A stretch of 59,040 nucleotides of DNA from Candidatus Kaiserbacteria bacterium RIFCSPHIGHO2_02_FULL_49_34. Lineage in GTDB: Bacteria; Patescibacteriota; Minisyncoccia; Phycocordibacterales; UBA918. Below, piece after piece: positions 1 to 49,905 of this stretch. Below the pieces are notes generated by a model, which saw only the letters and a list, made by a program, of their open reading frames with translations, was not told where the DNA came from and searched no databases. The DNA is taken from NCBI GenBank assembly GCA_001781205.1, contig MFLE01000017.1:1-59040 (forward strand), read 5' to 3'. Positions within the stretch are counted from its first letter, which is position 1. Each line of letters begins with the position of its first letter. Position numbers and translations under genes: made by a program.

Positions 1-2287
1 GAACGATGGTCTCGAGGATGTGTTTTAGCTTGGGGGCGATTACACTCACGAGGCCTTCTTTTATTTCGAAAATGAGCTCGTCGTGAATCTGGAGAAGGAG
101 TCGTACGTTGTCACGTAGTCCTTCTTTCTCGATAAAATCATCGGCACGTACCATAGCGATGCGGACCACATCAGCTTCCATACCCTGGATAGGAGCGTTG
201 ATTGCCATACGCTCTGCTTGGGCGCGCATAAACGGGACTGTCGAGTTAATACCCGCGAAGTAGCGGCGGCGGCCATACGGGGTTTCGGTGTAGCCGTTCC
301 TTCGGGCAAATGTTTTGGTATCTTCAAGATATGCAGCGAGCTGCGGGAACGAGGCGAAGTAGGCGTCGAGGTACTGCTGTGCCGTTTCGCGACTGGTGCC
401 ATCGCCGAGGTTTTGCCGAAGTGCGGTGACACCCATACCGTACATAATGCCGAAGTTAATCACCTTTGCACGACGACGCATCTCTTTGGTGACTTCCGCT
501 GCGTCGACATTAAACACGCGTGCAGCAACGGATGTGTGAATATCTTCCCCTGCTTTGAAAATGCGCATGAGCTCAGTGTCTTCTGCAAGGAATGCTGCGA
601 TACGTAGTTCAATTTGTGCGTAGTCGAACGCAACGAGTGCGTAGCCTTTCTCTGCGGTGAAGGCACTCCGAATCATTCTCCCCTGCTCGCTACGTGTGGG
701 AATGTTTTGCAGGTTTGGGTCACGTGATGCGAGGCGCCCTGTCGTGGTACCTGCCTGCAAGAAGTGCGAGTGAATTCTGCCATCTTCTTTGACAAGATTA
801 GGAAACGTGTCAATGTATGTTCCGACTAATTTTGATAATTCTCGATATTTGAGGACCTGCGCAATTATCGGATGCTCATCTTTCATTTTTTCTAGTTCGC
901 TTTCTTTGGTCGAGCGCTGCCCGGTCGACGTTTTCTTCGCACGTGACTTCGTACCAATGCCGAGCGTATCAAAAAGTATGTCGCCGAGCTGCTTTGGTGA
1001 ATTAATATTAAACTCTGTGCCGGCTGCTGCGTAAATTTCCGCAGTAAGCGAATCGAGTTCTTTATGGAATAGCCCGCTTAGTCTATTGAGCTCAGCAACA
1101 TCAACAGCAATGCCAATTTCTCGCATACGCGCAAGCACCGCCCGGAGCGGTTGTTCAATTTCAACAAAAACTTTCTGCATTGGAGTTTCTGCGAGATCTT
1201 TCAGAATCTGCTCTCTTGATGCCTGTACTCCAATAACCCCTCGTGTTCGCCCATACGCAACTACATCGTCCTTTGACGGGTTCGTATGGTCAGACACAAG
1301 CAACCAGAGTGCGAGTGCGGTTTCTTCAAGTTCATCATCAGTAAATTCTTCTTCCGTAACATCTTGCACCGCTTCAAAGGCTTGCGAGAGTCGTGGAATG
1401 AGTGAACGAAAACCAAGCTCCGCGCACCAGGTAATAACTTTCTCGCTATCGACGCTCTCGCGCCACACCCCTTCGGGAAGCTCGAAGGTAATCGGTGCAT
1501 CACGTGAAATTGTGGCAAGTACTTTTGAGAACCGCGCTTCGTCCTCCCCTTCGCGCAAGAGTCCAATAATACGAGGAGTTATTTTTACTTCACGAAAAGG
1601 AGCGTCATCTTTTGCGAGTTTCTTATACATCTTATCAAGGTCACCAAAGGTGGTAATAAGTGTGGTTGCTGTTTTTTCACCAATACCTTTAATGCCAGGA
1701 ATGTTGTCAGACGGGTCACCACGAAGCCCTTTGTAATCAGGAATAAGAAGCGGACCGAAACCAAAGCGCGTCTTCACGGCTACTTCGTCATATAAAATGG
1801 TGTCGTTAATCCCCTTTTTGAGCGTGTATACCTGCACGCGCTTTTTTTCGACAAGCTGGAGCGTGTCCATGTCGCCTGACGCAATAATAATCTCAACATC
1901 CTCATGTGCGCGCATCTGTTCTGCAATAGTACCGAGCAGGTCGTCAGCCTCATACCCCGCGCATTCATAACGAGGAATACCAAACACATCCATGAGATCT
2001 TTGGTACGTTCGAGCTGCACAATGAGGTCCTGCTCAAGTGCGTGGCGCGTACCCTTATATGCCTCATATGCTTCATGACGGTGCGTCGGTTGTGGCAAGT
2101 CAAAACACGCCACAAGGTAATCGGGTGAGAGTTCTTGCGCTATTTTTAGCACCATTGTAATTACTCCATACAGCGCACCGACAGGGTCACCATTGGGCGC
2201 GGTAAGTCCAGGAAGTGCATGGTAGGCGCGGTGAATGATTGCGTGTGCATCGAGCAAAACGAGACGAGTTTTTTTAGTTGTTGCCAT
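1..2287 (-). CDS. polA: DNA polymerase I (N-terminus complete, C-terminal end outside window)
   Basis: Absent from the ORF track because it runs off the left edge. My minus-strand translation from ATG at 2287 is stop-free to nt 1. It reads MATTKKTRLVLLDAHAIIHRAYHALP..GDPSDNIPGIKGIGEKTA (5-3 exo/FEN), then RLASRDPNLQNIP, FDYAQIELRIAA and LLQIHDELIFE (family A polymerase motifs). Confidence 0.95.
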   Translation of the reverse strand, partial: MATTKKTRLVLLDAHAIIHRAYHALPGLTAPNGDPVGALYGVITMVLKIAQELSPDYLVACFDLPQPTHRHEAYEAYKGTRHALEQDLIVQLERTKDLMDVFGIPRYECAGYEADDLLGTIAEQMRAHEDVEIIIASGDMDTLQLVEKKRVQVYTLKKGINDTILYDEVAVKTRFGFGPLLIPDYKGLRGDPSDNIPGIKGIGEKTATTLITTFGDLDKMYKKLAKDDAPFREVKITPRIIGLLREGEDEARFSKVLATISRDAPITFELPEGVWRESVDSEKVITWCAELGFRSLIPRLSQAFEAVQDVTEEEFTDDELEETALALWLLVSDHTNPSKDDVVAYGRTRGVIGVQASREQILKDLAETPMQKVFVEIEQPLRAVLARMREIGIAVDVAELNRLSGLFHKELDSLTAEIYAAAGTEFNINSPKQLGDILFDTLGIGTKSRAKKTSTGQRSTKESELEKMKDEHPIIAQVLKYRELSKLVGTYIDTFPNLVKEDGRIHSHFLQAGTTTGRLASRDPNLQNIPTRSEQGRMIRSAFTAEKGYALVAFDYAQIELRIAAFLAEDTELMRIFKAGEDIHTSVAARVFNVDAAEVTKEMRRRAKVINFGIMYGMGVTALRQNLGDGTSRETAQQYLDAYFASFPQLAAYLEDTKTFARRNGYTETPYGRRRYFAGINSTVPFMRAQAERMAINAPIQGMEADVVRIAMVRADDFIEKEGLRDNVRLLLQIHDELIFEIKEGLVSVIAPKLKHILETIV

Positions 2288-2783: not shown

Positions 2784-3130
2784 TCCGATTTGCTTAAAAT
2801 TGAGTACAAGTGCAAAAATTTCCGAAGCTGGCGCAAATGTGCCAATTTTAAGCAAATCGGAAACGAATACGCCGTGGAGTCAATTGTATGACTTCACGGC
2901 GTATGCTATGCTCTCTTGTAAGAGGAGTAGAAATTTTTGAAATCTAGACTCTTCATCAGAGTCAGAGCTCAAAACCATAACCCTCTAAACGCTTCTGGAG
3001 AAGTGAATAGCATACCAAGGAGATATCTCAGCGACCTCATTCAAGATGAGAACCAAAATACCCTCGTAGGATACCCAAATGCTTAGAGGGTTATAGTTTC
3101 GATGTCATGCATACTGCATGCTTACAAGAG
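2784..3130. ncRNA. candidate structured RNA or regulatory region (class unknown)
   Basis: Long non-coding gap with nested inverted repeats: 2784-2802/2843-2861 (19 bp), 2867-2876/2895-2904 (10 bp), 2913-2922/3121-3130 (10 bp), 2947-2952/2958-2963, and 2977-2988/3083-3094 (12 bp). Confidence 0.3.
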
Positions 3131-3253
3131 AACGTTTCTTCAGCACCCCTTGACGGAACGCTTTCGGAAGTAGCCATAGAATAGCACAGAACAGAAATTT
3201 GTCAAGCGGTTTTGCCCGTTTTTTTATTTGCCTCATGGTATACTTTCAGGAAT

Positions 3254-4931: not shown

Positions 4932-5052
4932 TGTCCCGTGTTATTTTTTAGGTTGCATTTTTTTCGTTTTCGTATACACTGTGCGCAATCGAGGAACAGA
5001 GGCTCTTGTAGCTCAGATTCCCCGCAGAAGGACTTGTTCCTCTCTGCGAATC

Positions 5053-5123
5053 GCGGCCATGGTTAAGTGGTATAATGCGGCCTTGCCAAGGCTGAGTCGG
5101 GAGTTCGATTCTCCCTGGCCGCA
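5053..5123 (+). tRNA. tRNA-Gly (anticodon GCC)
   Basis: Hand-folded cloverleaf: acceptor GCGGCCA/TGGCCGC, anticodon loop TTGCCAA, T-arm GGGAG-TTCGATT-CTCCC. No encoded CCA. Confidence 0.9.
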
Positions 5124-5132
5124 CAAAACAAG

Positions 5133-5160
5133 AAAAACAAGGCGTCCAGCCTTGTTTTTC
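5133..5160. terminator. bidirectional intrinsic terminator
   Basis: Stem acaaggc/gccttgt with an A-run upstream and a T-run downstream. It forms the centre of a longer palindrome spanning 5098-5195. Confidence 0.7.
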
Positions 5161-5170
5161 TATGTTTTGT

Positions 5171-5348
5171 GACGAGCCAGGGAGAATCGAACGCCGGAGC
5201 CGGTATACAAGCTTTGTATTGATGTGAAGCTTTAGCGAAACACAATACAAAGGCTTGTCGGCGAGGCGGGGCCGGCAGTGCTTGGCATTTTTGGAGCGAT
5301 AGCGAACATAAAATGCCTAGCAACTGTGGCCGATTCTCCATGGCCGCC
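5171..5348 (-). ncRNA. tRNA-linked structured element, copy A (Gly-type ends)
   Basis: Shares a conserved core with copies at 19139, 19361 and 20086. Its ends, GCCATGGAGAATCG and CGATTCTCCCTGGC, pair with each other and copy the T-arm/acceptor of the adjacent tRNA-Gly. Strand assigned by core alignment only. Confidence 0.45.
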
Positions 5349-5474
5349 TATATTTTATAAGCGCAAGCGAAATAAAATATAGATACACAAATACGTCAAT
5401 TCTCCCGTTCCAACTAAAACACCCCCCAATCCACACCCCTCATTTCCCCACTCCATGCTATACTTCACCAAGAT

Positions 5475-13392: not shown

Positions 13393-13848
13393 TTACGGAC
13401 AAGTAGGATACGTCGTACTAAACCAACTCGCGTTTACGTTCGACCCTCGTTTGCAGAAGGTGTCGTTTGTGGGAAGGAAGCGTTCGAATTTCAAAAGTAT
13501 CCCATACGAATCTCTTTCACTATTCACAATATACTGATAGTCATGATACACACTCGTGCGCGGATCAATCGGGAGCTTCTCAAGGTACTTTGGCACCAAG
13601 AACGGCGCAAGAGCATCCACACTACATGCCGACTCATTACATCCTGGCGGCGATGGGTATCCGTGTACATTATCCCCATGATAGAGTTCGATACCTGTCA
13701 TAAGCGCGGAGATATCATCAGCACGTCGCGCATCCCGTGCCTTTGCCCGAGCATTCGCCAGCGCCGTCAAAACCCCCGACGCCAAAAGCGCAATGATGGT
13801 AATCACCACCATGAGCTCGATGAGTGTAAATCCTCGTACTGTATTCAT
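13393..13848 (-). CDS. type IV pilin / pseudopilin (prepilin N-terminal methylation domain)
   Basis: MNTVRGFTLIELMVVITIIALLA is a class III signal (G/FTLIE) followed by the hydrophobic helix. Confidence 0.85.
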   Translation of the reverse strand: MNTVRGFTLIELMVVITIIALLASGVLTALANARAKARDARRADDISALMTGIELYHGDNVHGYPSPPGCNESACSVDALAPFLVPKYLEKLPIDPRTSVYHDYQYIVNSERDSYGILLKFERFLPTNDTFCKRGSNVNASWFSTTYPTCP

Positions 13849-13903: not shown

Positions 13904-14389
13904 CTATTTGCATGCTCTTACTGCAGCACTAATAATTCCAGGGGCAGTTGTACTACTTACATTTGCACCTCTATAGCATGTTGAGTCATTAGCAGTTGCA
14001 ATATTTGGTGATCGTTCATATTTTATATAGATACCGTACCCGTCCGTATTGCCAATACTCTGATAGCTATAATAATTATCAACATCATTAATAGGATCTA
14101 TAGGAAGTTTATCCAGATAGGCAGGAACAAGAACGTTGGTAAGGGTACTTGTAAAAAGAGAGGATGACGGAGTAGATCCCTGGACTGGATACGCGTTATT
14201 ATCATTGTTATAAAGCTCAAGCGCCGTCATAAGCTGACGCACATCCGCCGTACGACGTGCATCACGTGCCTTTGCACGTGCGTTACCAAGCGCAACAAGT
14301 ACTGACGATGCCAAAAGACCAATGATAGTAATAACCACCATGAGCTCGATAAGGGTGAAACCTCGAACTGACGAAGAATGTGTATTCAT
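13904..14389 (-). CDS. type IV pilin / pseudopilin, tandem paralogue
   Basis: SSVRGFTLIELMVVITIIGLLASSVLVALGNARAKARDARR. The N-terminal ~60 aa are nearly identical to the neighbouring pilin, while the C-terminal domain has diverged. Confidence 0.85.
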   Translation of the reverse strand: MNTHSSSVRGFTLIELMVVITIIGLLASSVLVALGNARAKARDARRTADVRQLMTALELYNNDNNAYPVQGSTPSSSLFTSTLTNVLVPAYLDKLPIDPINDVDNYYSYQSIGNTDGYGIYIKYERSPNIATANDSTCYRGANVSSTTAPGIISAAVRACK

Positions 14390-18650: not shown

Positions 18651-19073
18651 TTACGCTTTTCTATCCATTGCATCGTTCGCAAGACGGTCGGCATCTTTGT
18701 TGAATTCGCGGTAGACGTGCTGGAACGTCAGATGTGGGAAGTGTTCTTTTTGGAGTGCTTTTATCTTCTCAAACTGGATACGCAATTCTGGTGACTTCAC
18801 TTTATAGATACCATCCATCTGCCGCTGTACGAGCTGGCTATCAAGACGGATCTCGACGGAGATTTTCTTGGTCTCATCAGCGAACATTGCATGAAGGGTC
18901 TCAAGCGCGACAAGTACCGCCTCATACTCCGCATGATTGTTGGTAGCTACCCCCAAATACTTTGAAACCTCCGCAAGCATATCACCATCCACATTGGTAA
19001 TATACACTCCCAACCCCGAAGGCCCTGGATTCCCCCGCGACCCCCCGTCCGTATATGCAATTATCTTTTTCAT
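18651..19073 (-). CDS. rnhA: ribonuclease HI
   Basis: YTDGGSRGNPGPSG.., NNHAEYEAV and NKDADRLAN together cover the DEDD catalytic pattern. Confidence 0.85.
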   Translation of the reverse strand: MKKIIAYTDGGSRGNPGPSGLGVYITNVDGDMLAEVSKYLGVATNNHAEYEAVLVALETLHAMFADETKKISVEIRLDSQLVQRQMDGIYKVKSPELRIQFEKIKALQKEHFPHLTFQHVYREFNKDADRLANDAMDRKA

Positions 19074-19138
19074 CCGTGCATTTTACTACAGCGAGAGGAA
19101 AGAAGCCAACAAAAAAGAGCTGGAAGCTCTTTTTTCTG

Positions 19139-19314
19139 TGCCGAGGGCGGGACTCGGTCACAGTTGCTAAGTCTTTTACTTCGCTGACGCTCATAAAAGT
19201 CAAAGCACTGCCGACCCCGACTCGCCGACAAGTATTTCTGTTGTGCTACGCTAACGCTTCACATCAACAGAAATCTTGTATACCAGCTCCGTCGTTCGAG
19301 TCCCGCTCCGGCAG
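19139..19314 (+). ncRNA. tRNA-linked structured element, copy B (Leu-UAA-type ends)
   Basis: Same core as copy A, with compensatory stem changes. Ends CGGGACTCG/CGAGTCCCG pair and mimic the T-arm of tRNA-Leu(UAA). Flanked by hairpin terminators at 19111-19136 and 19328-19352. Confidence 0.45.
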
Positions 19315-19327
19315 AAAATAATCAAAA

Positions 19328-19352
19328 AAGAGCTCGCCGCTCTTGTTTTGTT
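19328..19352. terminator. intrinsic terminator between elements B and C
   Basis: aagagc-tcgcc-gctctt with an A-run and a T-run. Confidence 0.6.
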
Positions 19353-19360
19353 ATTTTCTG

Positions 19361-19544
19361 TGCCGGGAGCGGGACTCGACCCAGAATCATGGACTTTTTA
19401 ATTCGTGCTGACGCACTCTAAAAATCTCATGTTCTTGGTCGGCCACTCGCTTTGCTTGTTCCTTCGCTACCGCTACGGAAACGCAATATGCTCCGTGTCT
19501 TCGAGTCCCGACGTAGGCAAAGCAGTTTGCCTACTCTCCCGGCA
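19361..19544 (+). ncRNA. tRNA-linked structured element, copy C (divergent; Leu-UAA-type ends)
   Basis: Starts with tgccgggagcgggactcga, identical to the reverse complement of the 3-prime end of tRNA-Leu(UAA). Ends with ttcgagtcccg..ctctcccggca. First hairpin is alignable with copy B. Has an extra hairpin taggcaaagcagtttgccta. Confidence 0.4.
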
Positions 19545-19548
19545 CTGT

Positions 19549-19586
19549 GAAAATGTAAAACCGCCCTTAGGCGGTTAACATTTTCT
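19549..19586. terminator. terminator shared by element C and tRNA-Leu(UAA)
   Basis: gaaaatgtaaaaccgcc-ctta-ggcggttaacattttc. A near-identical inverted copy lies at 19820-19857. Confidence 0.65.
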
Positions 19587-19590
19587 GCAG

Positions 19591-19676
19591 TGCCGGGAGC
19601 GGGACTCGAACCCGCACGACCGTATTAGGGTCCAGGAATTTTAAGTCCCCTATGTCTACCATTCCATCATCCCGGC
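19591..19676 (-). tRNA. tRNA-Leu (anticodon UAA)
   Basis: Acceptor GCCGGGA/TCCCGGC, anticodon loop CTTAAAA, long variable arm, T-arm GCGGG-TTCGAGT-CCCGC. Confidence 0.9.
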
Positions 19677-19743
19677 AGCAATTGGCATCATAGCATAAAG
19701 CAGTTGGATTATCACGCGGTATATGCTAAAGTATCGAGCACAA

Positions 19744-19815
19744 GTCTCGGTGGCGAAGTGGTAACGCTGTGGATTGCAAATCCTCCATGCGCGGGTTCGA
19801 TTCCCGCCCGGGACT
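19744..19815 (+). tRNA. tRNA-Cys (anticodon GCA)
   Basis: Acceptor GTCTCGG/CCGGGAC (one G-U pair), anticodon loop TTGCAAA, T-arm GCGGG-TTCGATT-CCCGC. Confidence 0.85.
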
Positions 19816-19819
19816 CATA

Positions 19820-19857
19820 GAAAATGTTAACCGCCCCTTGGCGGTTTTACATTTTCA
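19820..19857. terminator. terminator after tRNA-Cys
   Basis: gaaaatgttaaccgcc-cctt-ggcggttttacattttc. Confidence 0.65.
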
Positions 19858-19956
19858 TGAGTCCCGGGAAGAGGCGAACTGATTCGCCTTGTGACACTTC
19901 GCTTGAAAAAGCAGTAATATTGTGTATACTGCATCGACGTCCACAAGACGACATCT

Positions 19957-20038
19957 GCCCAGGTGTTGAAATTGGTAGACAAGCTACCTTGAGGTGGTAG
20001 TGCCGAGAGGCGTGGAGGTTCAAGTCCTCTCCTGGGCA
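19957..20038 (+). tRNA. tRNA-Leu (anticodon GAG)
   Basis: Acceptor GCCCAGG/CCTGGGC, anticodon loop TTGAGGT, long variable arm, T-arm GGAGG-TTCAAGT-CCTCT. Confidence 0.9.
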
Positions 20039-20044
20039 CAAAAC

Positions 20045-20080
20045 AAAAATTCCCAAAGCGTCTAGCTTTGGGAATTTATT
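20045..20080. terminator. bidirectional terminator
   Basis: attcccaaagc-gtcta-gctttgggaat with A and T runs. It forms the centre of the larger palindrome 20013-20110. Confidence 0.7.
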
Positions 20081-20085
20081 GTTTT

Positions 20086-20256
20086 GCACCCAGGAGAGGA
20101 CTTGAACGCCGGAGCCGGTACACAAGCTTTGTATTGATACGCAGCTTTAGCGCAGCACAATACAAAGACTTGTCGGCGAGGTGGGGTCGGCAGCACTTAG
20201 CAGAATTGGAGCGATAGCGAACAATTCTGTTTAGTGACTGTGACCAAGTCCTCTCC
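20086..20256 (-). ncRNA. tRNA-linked structured element, copy D (Leu-GAG-type ends)
   Basis: Core is near-identical to copy A. Perfect 12-bp closing stem GGAGAGGACTTG/CAAGTCCTCTCC copies the T-arm of the adjacent tRNA-Leu(GAG). Confidence 0.45.
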
Positions 20257-20279
20257 AAAAGTACAGCGTAAAAATTAAT

Positions 20280-20483
20280 TTATTTTTTACGCTGTACTGC
20301 AAGATACACAAGCCCGCACGGAACTATCACCATAATTACGGTAACCAACAGATTGGTACCTGAATCAACTGAGGGCGGTTCATTTCGCGCTACTATATAC
20401 GATACCGTAAAAAATATTGCTAAGGAAAACGCAATTGCAAAGAGCATATATCGAATGCTTTTACGGTACTTGTAAGAAGTCAT
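20280..20483 (-). CDS. small hypothetical membrane protein (two TM)
   Basis: 67-aa ORF with two hydrophobic helices. A hairpin terminator overlaps its stop codon (about 20259-20300). Confidence 0.45.
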   Translation of the reverse strand: MTSYKYRKSIRYMLFAIAFSLAIFFTVSYIVARNEPPSVDSGTNLLVTVIMVIVPCGLVYLAVQRKK

Positions 20484-26425: not shown

Positions 26426-26501
26426 CCGCCTATAGCTCAGTTGGTAGAGCGCGAAGCTTATACCTTCGTGGTCCCAGGTTCGAGTCCTGGTGGGCGGACC
26501 A
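26426..26501 (+). tRNA. tRNA-Ile (anticodon UAU), CCA encoded
   Basis: Acceptor CCGCCTA/TGGGCGG, D-arm GCTCAGTTGGTAGAGC, anticodon stem-loop CGAAG-CTTATAC-CTTCG, T-arm CCAGG-TTCGAGT-CCTGG. Confidence 0.8.
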
Positions 26502-26514
26502 AATCTTTAATCAT

Positions 26515-26555
26515 ATACCTCTGATGTCCATGGTTCGAGTCCATGAGGGCGGACA
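26515..26555 (+). pseudogene. tRNA 3-prime-half fragment (Ile-like), no matching 5-prime half
   Basis: ATACCTCTGATGTCCATGGTTCGAGTCCATGAGGGCGGACA parallels the 3-prime half of the preceding tRNA-Ile, and the T-stem is kept by compensatory changes. Confidence 0.5.
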
Positions 26556-26604
26556 AAGTATTGAAGTACGTGAATATATAAAATCGCCTGCTTTCTAGGC
26601 GATT

Positions 26605-31070: not shown

Positions 31071-32081
31071 ATGGAATTAAGTCTTGAAGAAATTGCGCGA
31101 CAGAATGTTTCTCATATCGTAACGCAGGCACTACAACACACTTCTGCACAAAAGGCGGTTATTATTTTTGATACGCAGTTTGGTTTAACGCGGATGGTGG
31201 CTAATGCGTATCGAGTAATGCTTCCTGATGCTGTGCGCATTGATTTTGATATGTCTTCAAAAGAAGAAATTCTTGCGGCGTTTGACTTACTTTCTCCGGG
31301 CGATTTGGTTATTATGGTGCAATCAACGAATTTTCGATTGAATGATTTTCGTATTCGTTTGCATTTGTTCGCAAAGAAATTGAAAGTTATTGAGCATGCG
31401 CGACTTGCGCGGAACACTGAAGAGACTTGGGCGACCTATATTCATGCCCTTGCATACGACCAAACGTGGTATCACGAGACAGGTCATGGACTAAAGAATA
31501 TTCTTGATAGCGCGCAAGAGCTTCGATATGAATCAGGTGATGCAGTACTTGTGGTCAAGGACGGACTCGAAGCTGCAAGTTTGAATATCGGCGATTATAC
31601 CGGTATGGAAAATGTTGGTGGCTCCTTCCCTATTGGCGAAGTATTTACTGAGGCAAAAGACCTGACAAAACTCAATGGTTCTGTGTATATCGACATTTTT
31701 GCCGATACGAACTTTGAAATCGAAAAACACGAGCCATTTCGTGTTGATATTGCTGAGGGGCTCATTGTTGGATACGGAGAAAACACACCGCAGCTTTTTA
31801 AAGACATTATCGAGAAAATTAAGGAGGAAGAACGTCCAATTATCCGTGAACTTGGTTTTGGACTCAATCGTGCGATTACGCGAGAGAATTTTTTGAATGA
31901 CATCACTGCGTTTGAGCGTAATCTTGGTATGCATTTTTCAATTGGTGAGAAGCATAGCATCTATAAAAAGCCGGGGATTAAGGCATATAAGGCAAGGTAT
32001 CATATTGATGTGTTCCCTGTAATTGATCGCGTACTTGCCGATGGTGTGGTGATTTTTGAGGATGGAAGGCATATGCTCTAG
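31071..32081 (+). CDS. aminopeptidase-like protein (M29/AmpS-like, tentative)
   Basis: Start taken at MELSLEEIA. GGSFPIGEVFTEA resembles the M29 motif around the metal site. The assignment is tentative. Confidence 0.45.
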   Translation: MELSLEEIARQNVSHIVTQALQHTSAQKAVIIFDTQFGLTRMVANAYRVMLPDAVRIDFDMSSKEEILAAFDLLSPGDLVIMVQSTNFRLNDFRIRLHLFAKKLKVIEHARLARNTEETWATYIHALAYDQTWYHETGHGLKNILDSAQELRYESGDAVLVVKDGLEAASLNIGDYTGMENVGGSFPIGEVFTEAKDLTKLNGSVYIDIFADTNFEIEKHEPFRVDIAEGLIVGYGENTPQLFKDIIEKIKEEERPIIRELGFGLNRAITRENFLNDITAFERNLGMHFSIGEKHSIYKKPGIKAYKARYHIDVFPVIDRVLADGVVIFEDGRHML

Positions 32082-32082
32082 C

Positions 32083-32205
32083 TCTGGATCCCGCCAGGAT
32101 GACAAATGTTGGGTACGCTGTTTAAAATTAACAAATGGTTAAAATCGATTTTAATCATTACTTAATTTGTAGGCATATACCCTCATTTTGTCATCCTGGC
32201 GGGAT
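32083..32205. mobile_element. MITE-like inverted-repeat element, copy 1
   Basis: 19-bp perfect terminal inverted repeat atcccgccaggatgacaaa / tttgtcatcctggcgggat around the central sequence ggttaaaatcgattttaa. A partial extra arm (ctggatgttaaaatcgg) lies at 32222-32238. Confidence 0.6.
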
Positions 32206-39796: not shown

Positions 39797-39837
39797 AACC
39801 GCTTTAACTACCACTCCCACAAAAGCTACACCCGTAA

Positions 39838-40080
39838 CTTTTGTCATCCTGTAAGGACCCAGAGCGAGAATGCAGGCCCTCGGGCTTTTCATTTACCACC
39901 ATAAAGAAGTTCAACGTAATCGCTCCTTATAAAACAAAATAATAACTCGAGTTTTGTCAGTTCCCGCTCTGGATCCCGACAGGATGAGGAGGTGAATTGG
40001 TACGAAGTACCAAGAGAGGCTGCCCTGGGGTACAAAATGAGGGCAAAGTGCCTAAAAGTTGCACGTGGTTAAAATCGCAC
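39838..40080. mobile_element. mosaic of MITE-like element arms (copy 2, rearranged and truncated)
   Basis: A 3-prime-type arm ttttgtcatcctgtaaggacccagagcg (39838-39865) precedes a 5-prime-type arm cgctctggatcccgacaggatga (39965-39987). The element stops in the middle of its central palindrome (ggttaaaatcg|cac) at 40080. Confidence 0.55.
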
Positions 40081-49776: not shown

Positions 49777-49905
49777 CTCTGGATCCCGTCAGGATAAAAA
49801 AATGAAGGGAATAAGTTATGAATTTAGTGATGGTTAAAATCGATTTTAACCATCACATAATTTAAAACATCACACTTAACATTTGTTGTCTTGACAGGAT
49901 CCAGG
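49777..49905. mobile_element. MITE-like inverted-repeat element, copy 3
   Basis: Arms ctctggatcccgtcaggat / ttgacaggatccag around the central palindrome ggttaaaatcgattttaacc. Confidence 0.55.

Follow-up and report, generated by a model that had tools for sequence, protein, structure and literature searches.

We describe a family of structured units that lie downstream of tRNA genes in Patescibacteria, starting from a 59,040-nt contig (hereafter the window; MFLE01000017.1, assembly GCA_001781205.1) of Candidatus Kaiserbacteria bacterium RIFCSPHIGHO2_02_FULL_49_34. The unit that opened the study, unit A, follows tRNA-Gly(GCC) on the same strand and is bounded by two arms made of tRNA sequence, one complementary to the 3′ end of the tRNA and one repeating it. 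By pairing, the arms close off a three-way junction from which two long hairpins extend. This architecture resembles that of RtT, an RNA encoded in the repeats of the Escherichia coli tyrT operon. On balance, we consider it probable that the units are RtT-like passenger RNAs of tRNA transcription units, which would be freed by tRNA end-processing and spread by recombination or template switching at tRNA-3′-end repeats. A first-pass annotation of the window had noticed a structured element of ~175 nt at 5171–5348, and had taken it for a gene convergent with the tRNA. The parts of the locus are given below, with the support for each in brackets.

5053–5124, plus strand: tRNA-Gly(GCC) (ARAGORN and the Rfam tRNA model, 66 bits).
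5125–5175, plus strand: spacer hairpin, consisting of an A-tract, a GC stem at 5131–5161 and a U-tract (terminator scan).
5176–5192, plus strand: 5′ arm (X) of unit A, GCCAGGGAGAATCGAAC (sequence; helix 1 of the consensus structure).
5193–5330, plus strand: core of unit A, where two hairpins, both ending in a GA-flanked mini-hairpin, extend from a three-way junction (covariation; matches to the covariance models R1 and R2).
5331–5347, plus strand: 3′ arm (X′) of unit A, CGATTCTCCATGGCCGC / CGATTCTCCaTGGCCGC (sequence; 3′-arm match statistics).
5348–5382, plus strand: distal hairpin closing unit A, with the tip AAGCGCAAGCGAA (sequence; alignment with locus L167 of the closest relative).

Both arms of unit A have the 3′ end of tRNA-Gly(GCC), from T-loop to discriminator, as their template. 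The 5′ arm is the reverse complement of tRNA positions ~54–70, which run from the T-loop into the acceptor 3′ strand, and the 3′ arm, separated from it by 138 nt, is a direct repeat of the tRNA 3′ end with 16 of 17 positions identical. The earlier description of ends that copy and complement the T-loop, T-stem and acceptor 3′ strand was thus accurate, and in the register of the 14-bp closing stem proposed there 13 of the 14 positions pair. The spacer stem at 5131–5161 scored as a terminator in both directions, and its hairpin is the centre of the long palindrome at 5098–5195 that had also been noted. The core scored 163–200 bits with the two covariance models and carries the conserved junction sequences CGGAGCCGGUAUACAAG ... 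CUUGUCGGCGAGGCGGGG(U/C)CG ... UGUG(A/G)CC. The tip of the distal hairpin has the same mini-hairpin motif as the core, and this hairpin is kept in the closest relative. Both strands of unit A folded much more stably than shuffled sequences did, with minimum free energies of −83 kcal/mol for the minus strand (z = −9.9) and −89 kcal/mol for the plus strand (z = −8.3). The structured element, its two hairpins and its conserved junctions were confirmed. In the leader of the tRNA-Gly gene (4990–5052) we also observed a hairpin, GAGGAACAGAGG...CTTGTTCCTC, which comes after a promoter-like TTGCAT...TATACA and before the tRNA and is kept in the locus of the relative (L167).

The window contains three further copies, as had been reported for 19.1–20.3 kb. 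Units B (19138–19315), C (19360–19545) and D (20086–20256) lie beside tRNA-Leu(TAA) and tRNA-Leu(GAG). We ran a pattern made from two conserved core segments on genome and metagenome collections, which returned one genome locus (L001, a Paceibacteria metagenome-assembled genome with two exact tandem copies) and 12 metagenome loci. A tRNA for Ala, Glu, Val, Ser, Gly(TCC) or Leu stood beside the element in nearly all of them. This genome pattern was too strict, and 35 of its 36 matches were due to chance, with L001 the only genuine one. A looser junction pattern, CTTGTCGGCGAGNNGGGGYCG, was also run on the genome collection; what we report from it holds among the matches listed. Covariance models R1 and R2 were built from the copies, as the first-pass annotation had suggested. 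Among the listed matches of the looser pattern, these models recognized at least 52 units in Patescibacteria loci, whereas no unit was recognized by the covariance models in the listed loci from outside Patescibacteria, where the pattern matches were due to chance. Unit-bearing loci were labelled Saccharibacteria, Paceibacteria/Paceibacterota, Nomurabacteria, Kaiserbacteria, Yonathbacteria or Parcubacteria. In total, the covariance models found more than 65 copies in more than 40 Patescibacteria loci, with unit lengths of 130–190 nt. R2 with default filters missed diverged units that are visible by eye (L037 1462–1650, the first unit of L039 and L180 2303–2480), and this census is therefore a lower bound. 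Because R2 also recognizes unit C and other core subtypes, we treat all of them as one superfamily. No copies were found in viral contigs, where the four pattern matches were chance hits in coding DNA.

Searches against Rfam 15 (4,227 models, including self-cleaving ribozymes and riboswitches) returned no family for the window copies even at E = 10, in keeping with the earlier view that the element lies outside the named families. The same held at the gathering threshold and at E ≤ 10 across the window, 18 Patescibacteria loci and locus L064, in which only tRNA and transfer-messenger RNA (tmRNA) matched. A literature search for an earlier description in Patescibacteria found nothing relevant.

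Support from covariation was very strong. In alignments fitted to the model, two-sided changes were seen at 44 of 62 consensus pairs among 18 distinct sequences, and at 51 of 57 pairs among 51 independent sequences, a set that has no sequence in common with the model training set. Between 89 and 93% of cells were paired, compared with 33–46% when the partners were slid, and none of 500 shuffles reached the observed values. Hairpins vary in length from ~10 to 60 nt. By contrast, ~50 nt of junction, including unpaired positions and one G·U pair, is near-invariant from Saccharibacteria to Kaiserbacteria, in the order CGGAGCCGGUAnACAAG, a hairpin that is often ACGAGCGAAGCGAGUG, and CUUGUCGGCGAGnCGGGGUCG ... 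UGUGACC. Such conservation across class-level lineages places the module, for which Rfam has no entry, among the most conserved non-coding RNA candidates of Patescibacteria. The spacer between tRNA and unit is a hairpin of ~45 nt in all 44 tRNA-proximal units. Its A- and U-rich flanks pair, so that tRNA 3′ end, trailer, hairpin and 5′ arm form one long palindrome.

A tRNA gene lies upstream on the same strand at 59 of 69 model matches, and 44 of these 59 units begin 31–63 nt past the tRNA. The neighbouring tRNAs span 29 isoacceptors, and about half of the tRNA genes in the sampled loci bear one or more units. The ten exceptions include several units cut by contig ends and inner members of arrays. 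Apparent orphans without an intact upstream tRNA were seen in L074, L090, L095 and L098; in L074 an array of at least three units (~2800–3200) has no detected tRNA in 8 kb. These units seem to be orphans or arrays that have become detached from a tRNA. The first-pass annotation had proposed a check on whether every copy sits convergent to a tRNA with matching ends: the tRNA association was confirmed for most copies, and the convergence was not.

The arms reproduce the T-loop, the T-stem 3′ strand, the acceptor 3′ strand and often the trailer of the local tRNA. Ends match the neighbouring tRNA in all four window copies, and the 3′ arm matched the upstream tRNA at 17 of 17 ungapped positions in 24 of the 59 tRNA-linked units. 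Matching of this kind supports the mechanistic tie to the adjacent tRNA that had been suspected. Units with cores 91% identical nevertheless carry wholly different arms (L043, beside an Ala-type tRNA, and L041, beside tRNA-Val; likewise L048 and L044). The G3·U70 pair of tRNA-Ala appears as A–U in the arms, which identifies the 5′ arm as the complement of the tRNA 3′ strand and not as a copy of its 5′ strand. CCA occurs in the arms only where the tRNA gene encodes it. The flanking repeats of tRNA sequence range from 15 to more than 55 nt, and the arms or direct repeat may run through the trailer and the whole hairpin (L001, L039, L047 and L064). Copying from mature tRNA, by the logic of a retroviral primer-binding site, was rejected, as no CCA appears in arms whose tRNA gene has none, and as copying extends to the trailer and hairpin. 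Separately, L043 contains three tandem tRNA-Met-like genes with identical 3′ ends and terminator hairpins (1100–1505, minus strand), a different mode of tRNA 3′-end repetition in Patescibacteria genomes.

We then asked which strand folds. Read on the strand opposite to the tRNA, the first alignment had no G·U and seven A·C at consensus pairs, and each of the 14 first copies folded better on the tRNA strand, by 5–23 kcal/mol. On the tRNA strand, the first model-guided set had 37 G·U and 12 A·C pairs. Among the 51 independent sequences, the core helices had 52 variable G·U against 21 A·C (P = 0.0004), and one further G·U pair was kept in 47 of 51. In 69 units, the tRNA strand had 69 occurrences of a GA-NN-loop-NN-GA mini-hairpin, in which tandem G·A pairs surround a two-pair stem, and the other strand had none, against a chance expectation of 7.7. 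The G·U/A·C asymmetry, the invariant G·U and the strand-specific mini-hairpin together identify the folded strand as the tRNA strand. Judged by these patterns, each unit in the window is probably co-oriented with its tRNA and lies ~40–55 nt downstream of it, and the convergent orientation proposed at first is probably wrong.

For comparison we examined the E. coli K-12 tyrT/tyrV locus (L053; NC_000913.3, 1286500–1287900), a precedent that went unrecognized when the element was compared with RNase P RNA, tmRNA, signal recognition particle RNA and 6S RNA. Here, 178-bp units follow each tRNA-Tyr in tandem on the same strand. Each unit consists of GGGGAAGGAT, the complement of the tRNA T-loop and the 3′ part of its T-stem, a branched core, and AATCCTTCCCCCACCACCA, the last 19 nt of the tRNA. 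The Rfam RtT model (RF00391) pairs the copy of the tRNA end with its complement as a closing stem, GGGGAAGGAU/AUCCUUCCCC, and the rttR RNA, as annotated, stops at the first unit's CCA. An annotated open reading frame for a 'protamine-like protein', tpr, also lies inside this first unit, which casts doubt on tpr as a real gene. In PMC3318445, rtT is described as an RNA encoded by the tyrT operon repeat unit and, with reference to Bosl and Kersten (1991), is reported to be processed out of the tRNA operon transcript into a discrete, stable RNA. The function of RtT was still called unknown in a 2024 preprint (bioRxiv 10.1101/2024.07.17.603846).

The two families share their position downstream of a tRNA on the same strand, a unit end that copies the tRNA 3′ end (~19 nt in RtT) and forms a closing stem with its complement, a branched core, tandem repetition and a similar length (130–190 nt). 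Each E. coli unit has two or three GA mini-hairpins; of these GAGCGAAGCGA is the commonest Patescibacteria variant and GAGCGTCAGCGA is identical to that of unit B. By analogy between the families, the shared mini-hairpin is likely to be a functional handle. The families also differ. RtT units occur only beside tRNA-Tyr in the E. coli K-12 locus, whereas the Patescibacteria units stand at 29 isoacceptors with re-templated arms; these arms cover the full acceptor strand and in many cases the trailer as well, tRNA and unit are set apart by a palindromic terminator-like hairpin, and the junction sequences are unlike. RF00391 scored 133–138 bits on the E. coli units (gathering threshold 45 bits) and gave no match at E ≤ 10 in window positions 4950–5450 and 19050–20350 or in L064 900–1500; R2, in turn, gave no match on the E. 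coli tyrT/tyrV locus. On this sequence comparison, the Patescibacteria family is RtT-like in architecture and not a member of RF00391. RtT is the only known analogue of the Patescibacteria units.

Turnover of the units is visible when the tRNA cluster at 19.1–20.3 kb of the window is compared with that of a close relative; in the window it contains the following features.

19138–19315, minus strand: unit B, of the unit A subtype, the outer member of a two-unit array downstream of tRNA-Leu(TAA).
19316–19359, no strand assigned: hairpin between units B and C (terminator scan, inverted repeat).
19360–19545, minus strand: unit C, of a diverged subtype (R2 match at 19356–19527, E = 1e-14).
19546–19589, no strand assigned: spacer hairpin between tRNA-Leu(TAA) and unit C (inverted repeat, terminator scan).
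19590–19676, minus strand: tRNA-Leu(TAA), arm template for units B and C (ARAGORN, Rfam).
19744–19868, plus strand: tRNA-Cys (19744–19816) and its terminator palindrome (19807–19868) (ARAGORN, inverted repeat).
19957–20039, plus strand: tRNA-Leu(GAG), arm template for unit D (ARAGORN, Rfam).
20040–20085, plus strand: spacer hairpin between tRNA-Leu(GAG) and unit D (inverted repeat, terminator scan).
20086–20256, plus strand: unit D, of the unit A subtype (R1 and R2, arm match).

The arms of unit B match tRNA-Leu(TAA) apart from a few changes. Unit C was detected by the second model, R2, only; its 5′ arm is interrupted by an inserted hairpin at 19511–19535, and its 3′ arm matches tRNA-Leu(TAA) at 17 of 17 positions. 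In unit D, the 3′ arm is cut down to CAAGTCCTCTCC. The terminator palindrome of tRNA-Cys reaches into the acceptor 3′ strand of that tRNA, and the R2 search of the window found no unit after it. A small hairpin and TGTGAC downstream of tRNA-Cys (19807–19900) resemble a unit 3′ border and may be a decayed unit. The hairpin terminators after tRNA-Leu(TAA) (19548–19586) and tRNA-Cys (19819–19857) are 90% identical in inverted orientation.

We compared these loci with the closest sequenced relative, the Kaiserbacteria metagenome-assembled genome MFMN01 (PrsW 88% and RNase H 87% identical). At its tRNA-Gly locus (L167), tRNA, spacer hairpin and 5′ arm share ~97% identity with the window as far as ...GGGAGAATCGAA. 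The core that follows is of another subtype, and then just the last ~70 nt of the subtype of the window are present: identity restarts within the mini-hairpin motif GCGAyAGCGAAC and is kept over the 3′ arm and distal hairpin. The breakpoints of this core swap are thus TCGAA and GCGAyAGCGAAC, and they coincide exactly with the T-loop TCGA and the shared mini-hairpins. In MFMN01, tRNA-Leu(TAA) has no unit and tRNA-Cys has a plain terminator. At tRNA-Leu(GAG), a C-type unit takes the place of the A-type unit of the window; it is 80% identical to unit C and has the same inserted hairpin, with arms that correspond to tRNA-Leu(GAG). Between window and relative, the orientation of the Leu(TAA)/Cys pair is reversed against that of its flanks (L180 2530–2923), with breakpoints at the terminator hairpins. 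These differences show that units are gained, lost and swapped on a short timescale, with arms that fit the local tRNA. Elsewhere, two metagenome contigs that represent one tRNA-Ala locus (L037 and L040) differ by a 192-nt indel, a single unit that has a 15-nt tRNA-end repeat at its borders, and L001 and L064 contain exact tandem units. Genes next to the window copies encode a PrsW protease, an LTD/PKD protein, RNase HI, ComEC and DoxX; among 24 open reading frames scanned in the window, there was no transposase, integrase or reverse transcriptase near the copies.

From these observations we infer how an RtT-like passenger RNA could arise and spread. Read-through from the tRNA promoter past the spacer hairpin would transcribe the unit, and the arms would pair into a helix whose 3′ strand is the 3′ end of the tRNA itself. 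Since the closing stem ends in this way, tRNA-end enzymes could release the unit, as reported for rtT: RNase P, RNase Z or exonucleases, with the CCA-adding enzyme where needed, would excise it as a discrete stable RNA. Units would multiply, vanish and move between tRNA loci by recombination or template switching, for which the repeated arms, the hairpin palindromes, the shared mini-hairpins and the T-loop TCGA, itself a palindrome and present at either border of the core, could serve as substrates. Snap-back copying at the terminator palindrome would generate the inverted arm. The arms would carry local tRNA sequence because exchange runs through tRNA-3′-end repeats and palindromes. Among the roles that the first-pass annotation had listed, a processing signal and a tRNA-templated duplication fit best with this scheme; an antisense or decoy RNA is neither shown nor needed.

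Several points count against this reading. The RNA status of every copy is read from DNA, and the alignments used for pair counts, being fitted to the model, lean towards structure. G·T pairs are also tolerated in folded single-stranded DNA, so that strand asymmetry by itself is no proof of RNA. The arms had no clear G·U bias (20 against 11 A·C, P = 0.15), which is what one would expect of DNA copies, as opposed to RNA pairs under selection. In most loci a canonical-looking intrinsic terminator, with GC stem and U-tract, stands between tRNA and unit, and read-through may therefore be weak; the terminator and flank scan revealed no separate promoter for the window units. In most cases the pairing of the closing stem extends past the discriminator, and there is no T-loop, so that the stem resembles RNase P and RNase Z substrates only loosely. 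Finally, as RF00391 and R2 are each blind to the other family, homology with RtT is not demonstrated.

Alternatively, the unit could be a non-autonomous mobile DNA element, whose fold acts in single-stranded DNA, such as a replication or recombination intermediate or a small circle, and which spreads among tRNA genes by template switching or an unidentified recombinase, with RNA as a by-product. We regard this as possible, although unlikely, as the whole explanation; it is compatible with a passenger RNA, and the two accounts overlap rather than exclude each other. The arms behave like target-derived inverted repeats flanked by direct tRNA-end repeats, which can take in the trailer and the whole hairpin (L039, L047 and L064), and they lack a G·U bias. 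Exact tandem arrays, gain, loss and swapping between close relatives with breakpoints at short shared motifs, and the terminator upstream of the unit all fit such an element. GCGAAGC and GCGAAAGC form exceptionally stable DNA mini-hairpins. In the 2024 preprint, the E. coli tyrT-rttR region had raised exonuclease-resistant 'mobilome' coverage under stress (bioRxiv 10.1101/2024.07.17.603846). However, ~50 nt of near-invariant junction is unusual for a purely selfish repeat, transposases, integrases and reverse transcriptases are missing near all window copies, viral contigs yielded no copies, and E. coli rtT is reported as an RNA in PMC3318445.

Known mobile elements match the units in part. 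Miniature inverted-repeat transposable elements (MITEs) and the REP/BIME, ERIC and Correia repeats are likewise short, multi-copy and intergenic, with inverted-repeat ends, strong hairpin potential and presence/absence polymorphism between relatives. The units, however, have terminal inverted repeats that copy whichever tRNA is adjacent in place of a constant sequence, there is no short fixed-length target duplication, and the core has RNA-type covariation and strand asymmetry and is kept across class-level lineages. A MITE was ruled out, given the lack of family-wide terminal inverted repeats, arms that belong to the local tRNA and flanking repeats of 15 to more than 55 nt. Genomic islands and prophages at tRNA genes likewise lie between the tRNA 3′ end and its direct repeat, and the L037/L040 pair resembles an excision between such repeats; the units differ as inserts of ~190 bp without integrase, with an internal inverted repeat copy and with many tRNAs for one family. 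An integrase-borne island was rejected, as 130–190 nt offer no coding capacity, 29 isoacceptors are used and no recombinase was found among the 24 window open reading frames. Retron msr-msd, bridge-RNA and omega-RNA guides were also set aside, with no reverse transcriptase, recombinase or nuclease gene nearby.

More speculatively, and with correspondingly low confidence, the units could represent a novel type of mobile module that requires no dedicated enzyme and lands downstream of any tRNA gene. Both of its arms would be templated from the tRNA 3′ end, by snap-back at the terminator palindrome and template switching at the T-loop TCGA, and the host tRNA-end machinery would excise and possibly circularize its RNA. 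Such a tRNA-templated, viroid-like passenger would be common to Patescibacteria and, as RtT, to enterobacteria, and its conserved junction might act as a new ribozyme or bind a tRNA-processing factor.

A self-processing RNA is an improbable alternative. Here the junction would be a new self-cleaving ribozyme, or the unit a substrate for a tRNA-end enzyme plus a ligase, releasing and perhaps circularizing units, in which hairpin, arm stem and core would make up a rod with branched head akin to a viroid-like circle. Variable helices around invariant junction nucleotides and a conserved G·U, many copies per genome and head-to-tail repeats are what such an RNA might show, and a cut after each discriminator would leave the unit ends abutting as a nick in a continuous helix. 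The ends abut because of the palindrome, and their juxtaposition is a trivial outcome of direct plus inverted repeats; moreover, no known ribozyme family in Rfam matched. The units share with tmRNA and viral tRNA-like structures paired 5′ and 3′ ends and a molecule that ends in a tRNA-type acceptor 3′ strand, but they form no T-arm: the T-loop copy pairs with the 5′ arm, and the helix passes through the discriminator. A tRNA or tmRNA, including intron-bearing, permuted or split tRNA, was excluded, as there is no D or anticodon arm, ARAGORN and Rfam matched genuine tRNAs only, and the 5′ arm is the complement of the 3′ strand.

The convergent gene of the first-pass annotation would be an independent small RNA on the opposite strand that shares the terminator with the tRNA and has a 5′ end antisense to the tRNA 3′ half, acting as an antisense or decoy regulator. 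The spacer hairpin is a good terminator both ways, the z-score of unit A is slightly better on the minus strand (−9.9 compared with −8.3) and one short variant (L001) has a C(UUCG)G loop on the opposite strand. We nevertheless consider this gene very improbable: the opposite strand had the 0 to 7 G·U/A·C count given above whereas the counts on the tRNA strand range over 37–99 G·U and 12–21 A·C, the conserved G·U would turn into a conserved A·C mismatch, the mini-hairpin motif is absent, all 14 first copies prefer the tRNA strand, another hairpin abuts the supposed 5′ end and leaves no space for a promoter, and RtT, the precedent, has the orientation of its tRNA. It is also highly improbable that the units are decayed tRNA pseudogenes or att-site scars of integrase-mediated insertion. 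Direct repeats of tRNA 3′ ends are a hallmark of tRNA-targeted integration, and the window has a tRNA-Ile 3′-half repeat of this kind (26509–26563), but an insert of just 130–190 bp, without integrase and with an inverted repeat copy, and a conserved covarying core beside 29 different tRNAs contradict this origin.

The units provide the first broad comparative context for the E. coli RtT RNA. Patescibacteria genomes are minimal and nonetheless retain many copies of the module. Arms that are re-templated while cores swap amount to an unusual local copying of sequence, which could reveal a new route of mobility for small elements. In metagenome-assembled genomes, the units will also confuse the annotation of tRNA loci, repeats and terminators.

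The window contains other repeats. The tRNA-Ile(TAT) gene at 26426–26501 is adjoined by a 73% identical direct repeat of its 3′ half (26509–26563) that spans anticodon loop to 3′ end and has compensatory T-stem changes; this looks like a pseudo-tRNA half or att-type scar distinct from the units. A second repeat family consists of near-perfect intergenic palindromes of ~125 nt, CTCTGGATCCCGnCAGGATGA ... GGTTAAAATCGATTTTAAcC ..., at 32077–32205 and 49777–49904, with fragments at 39836–39869 and 39967–39996; it is MITE-like in appearance and had no match in Rfam. A 173-nt direct repeat (13669–13841 and 14198–14370) has 71% identity between copies 529 nt apart.

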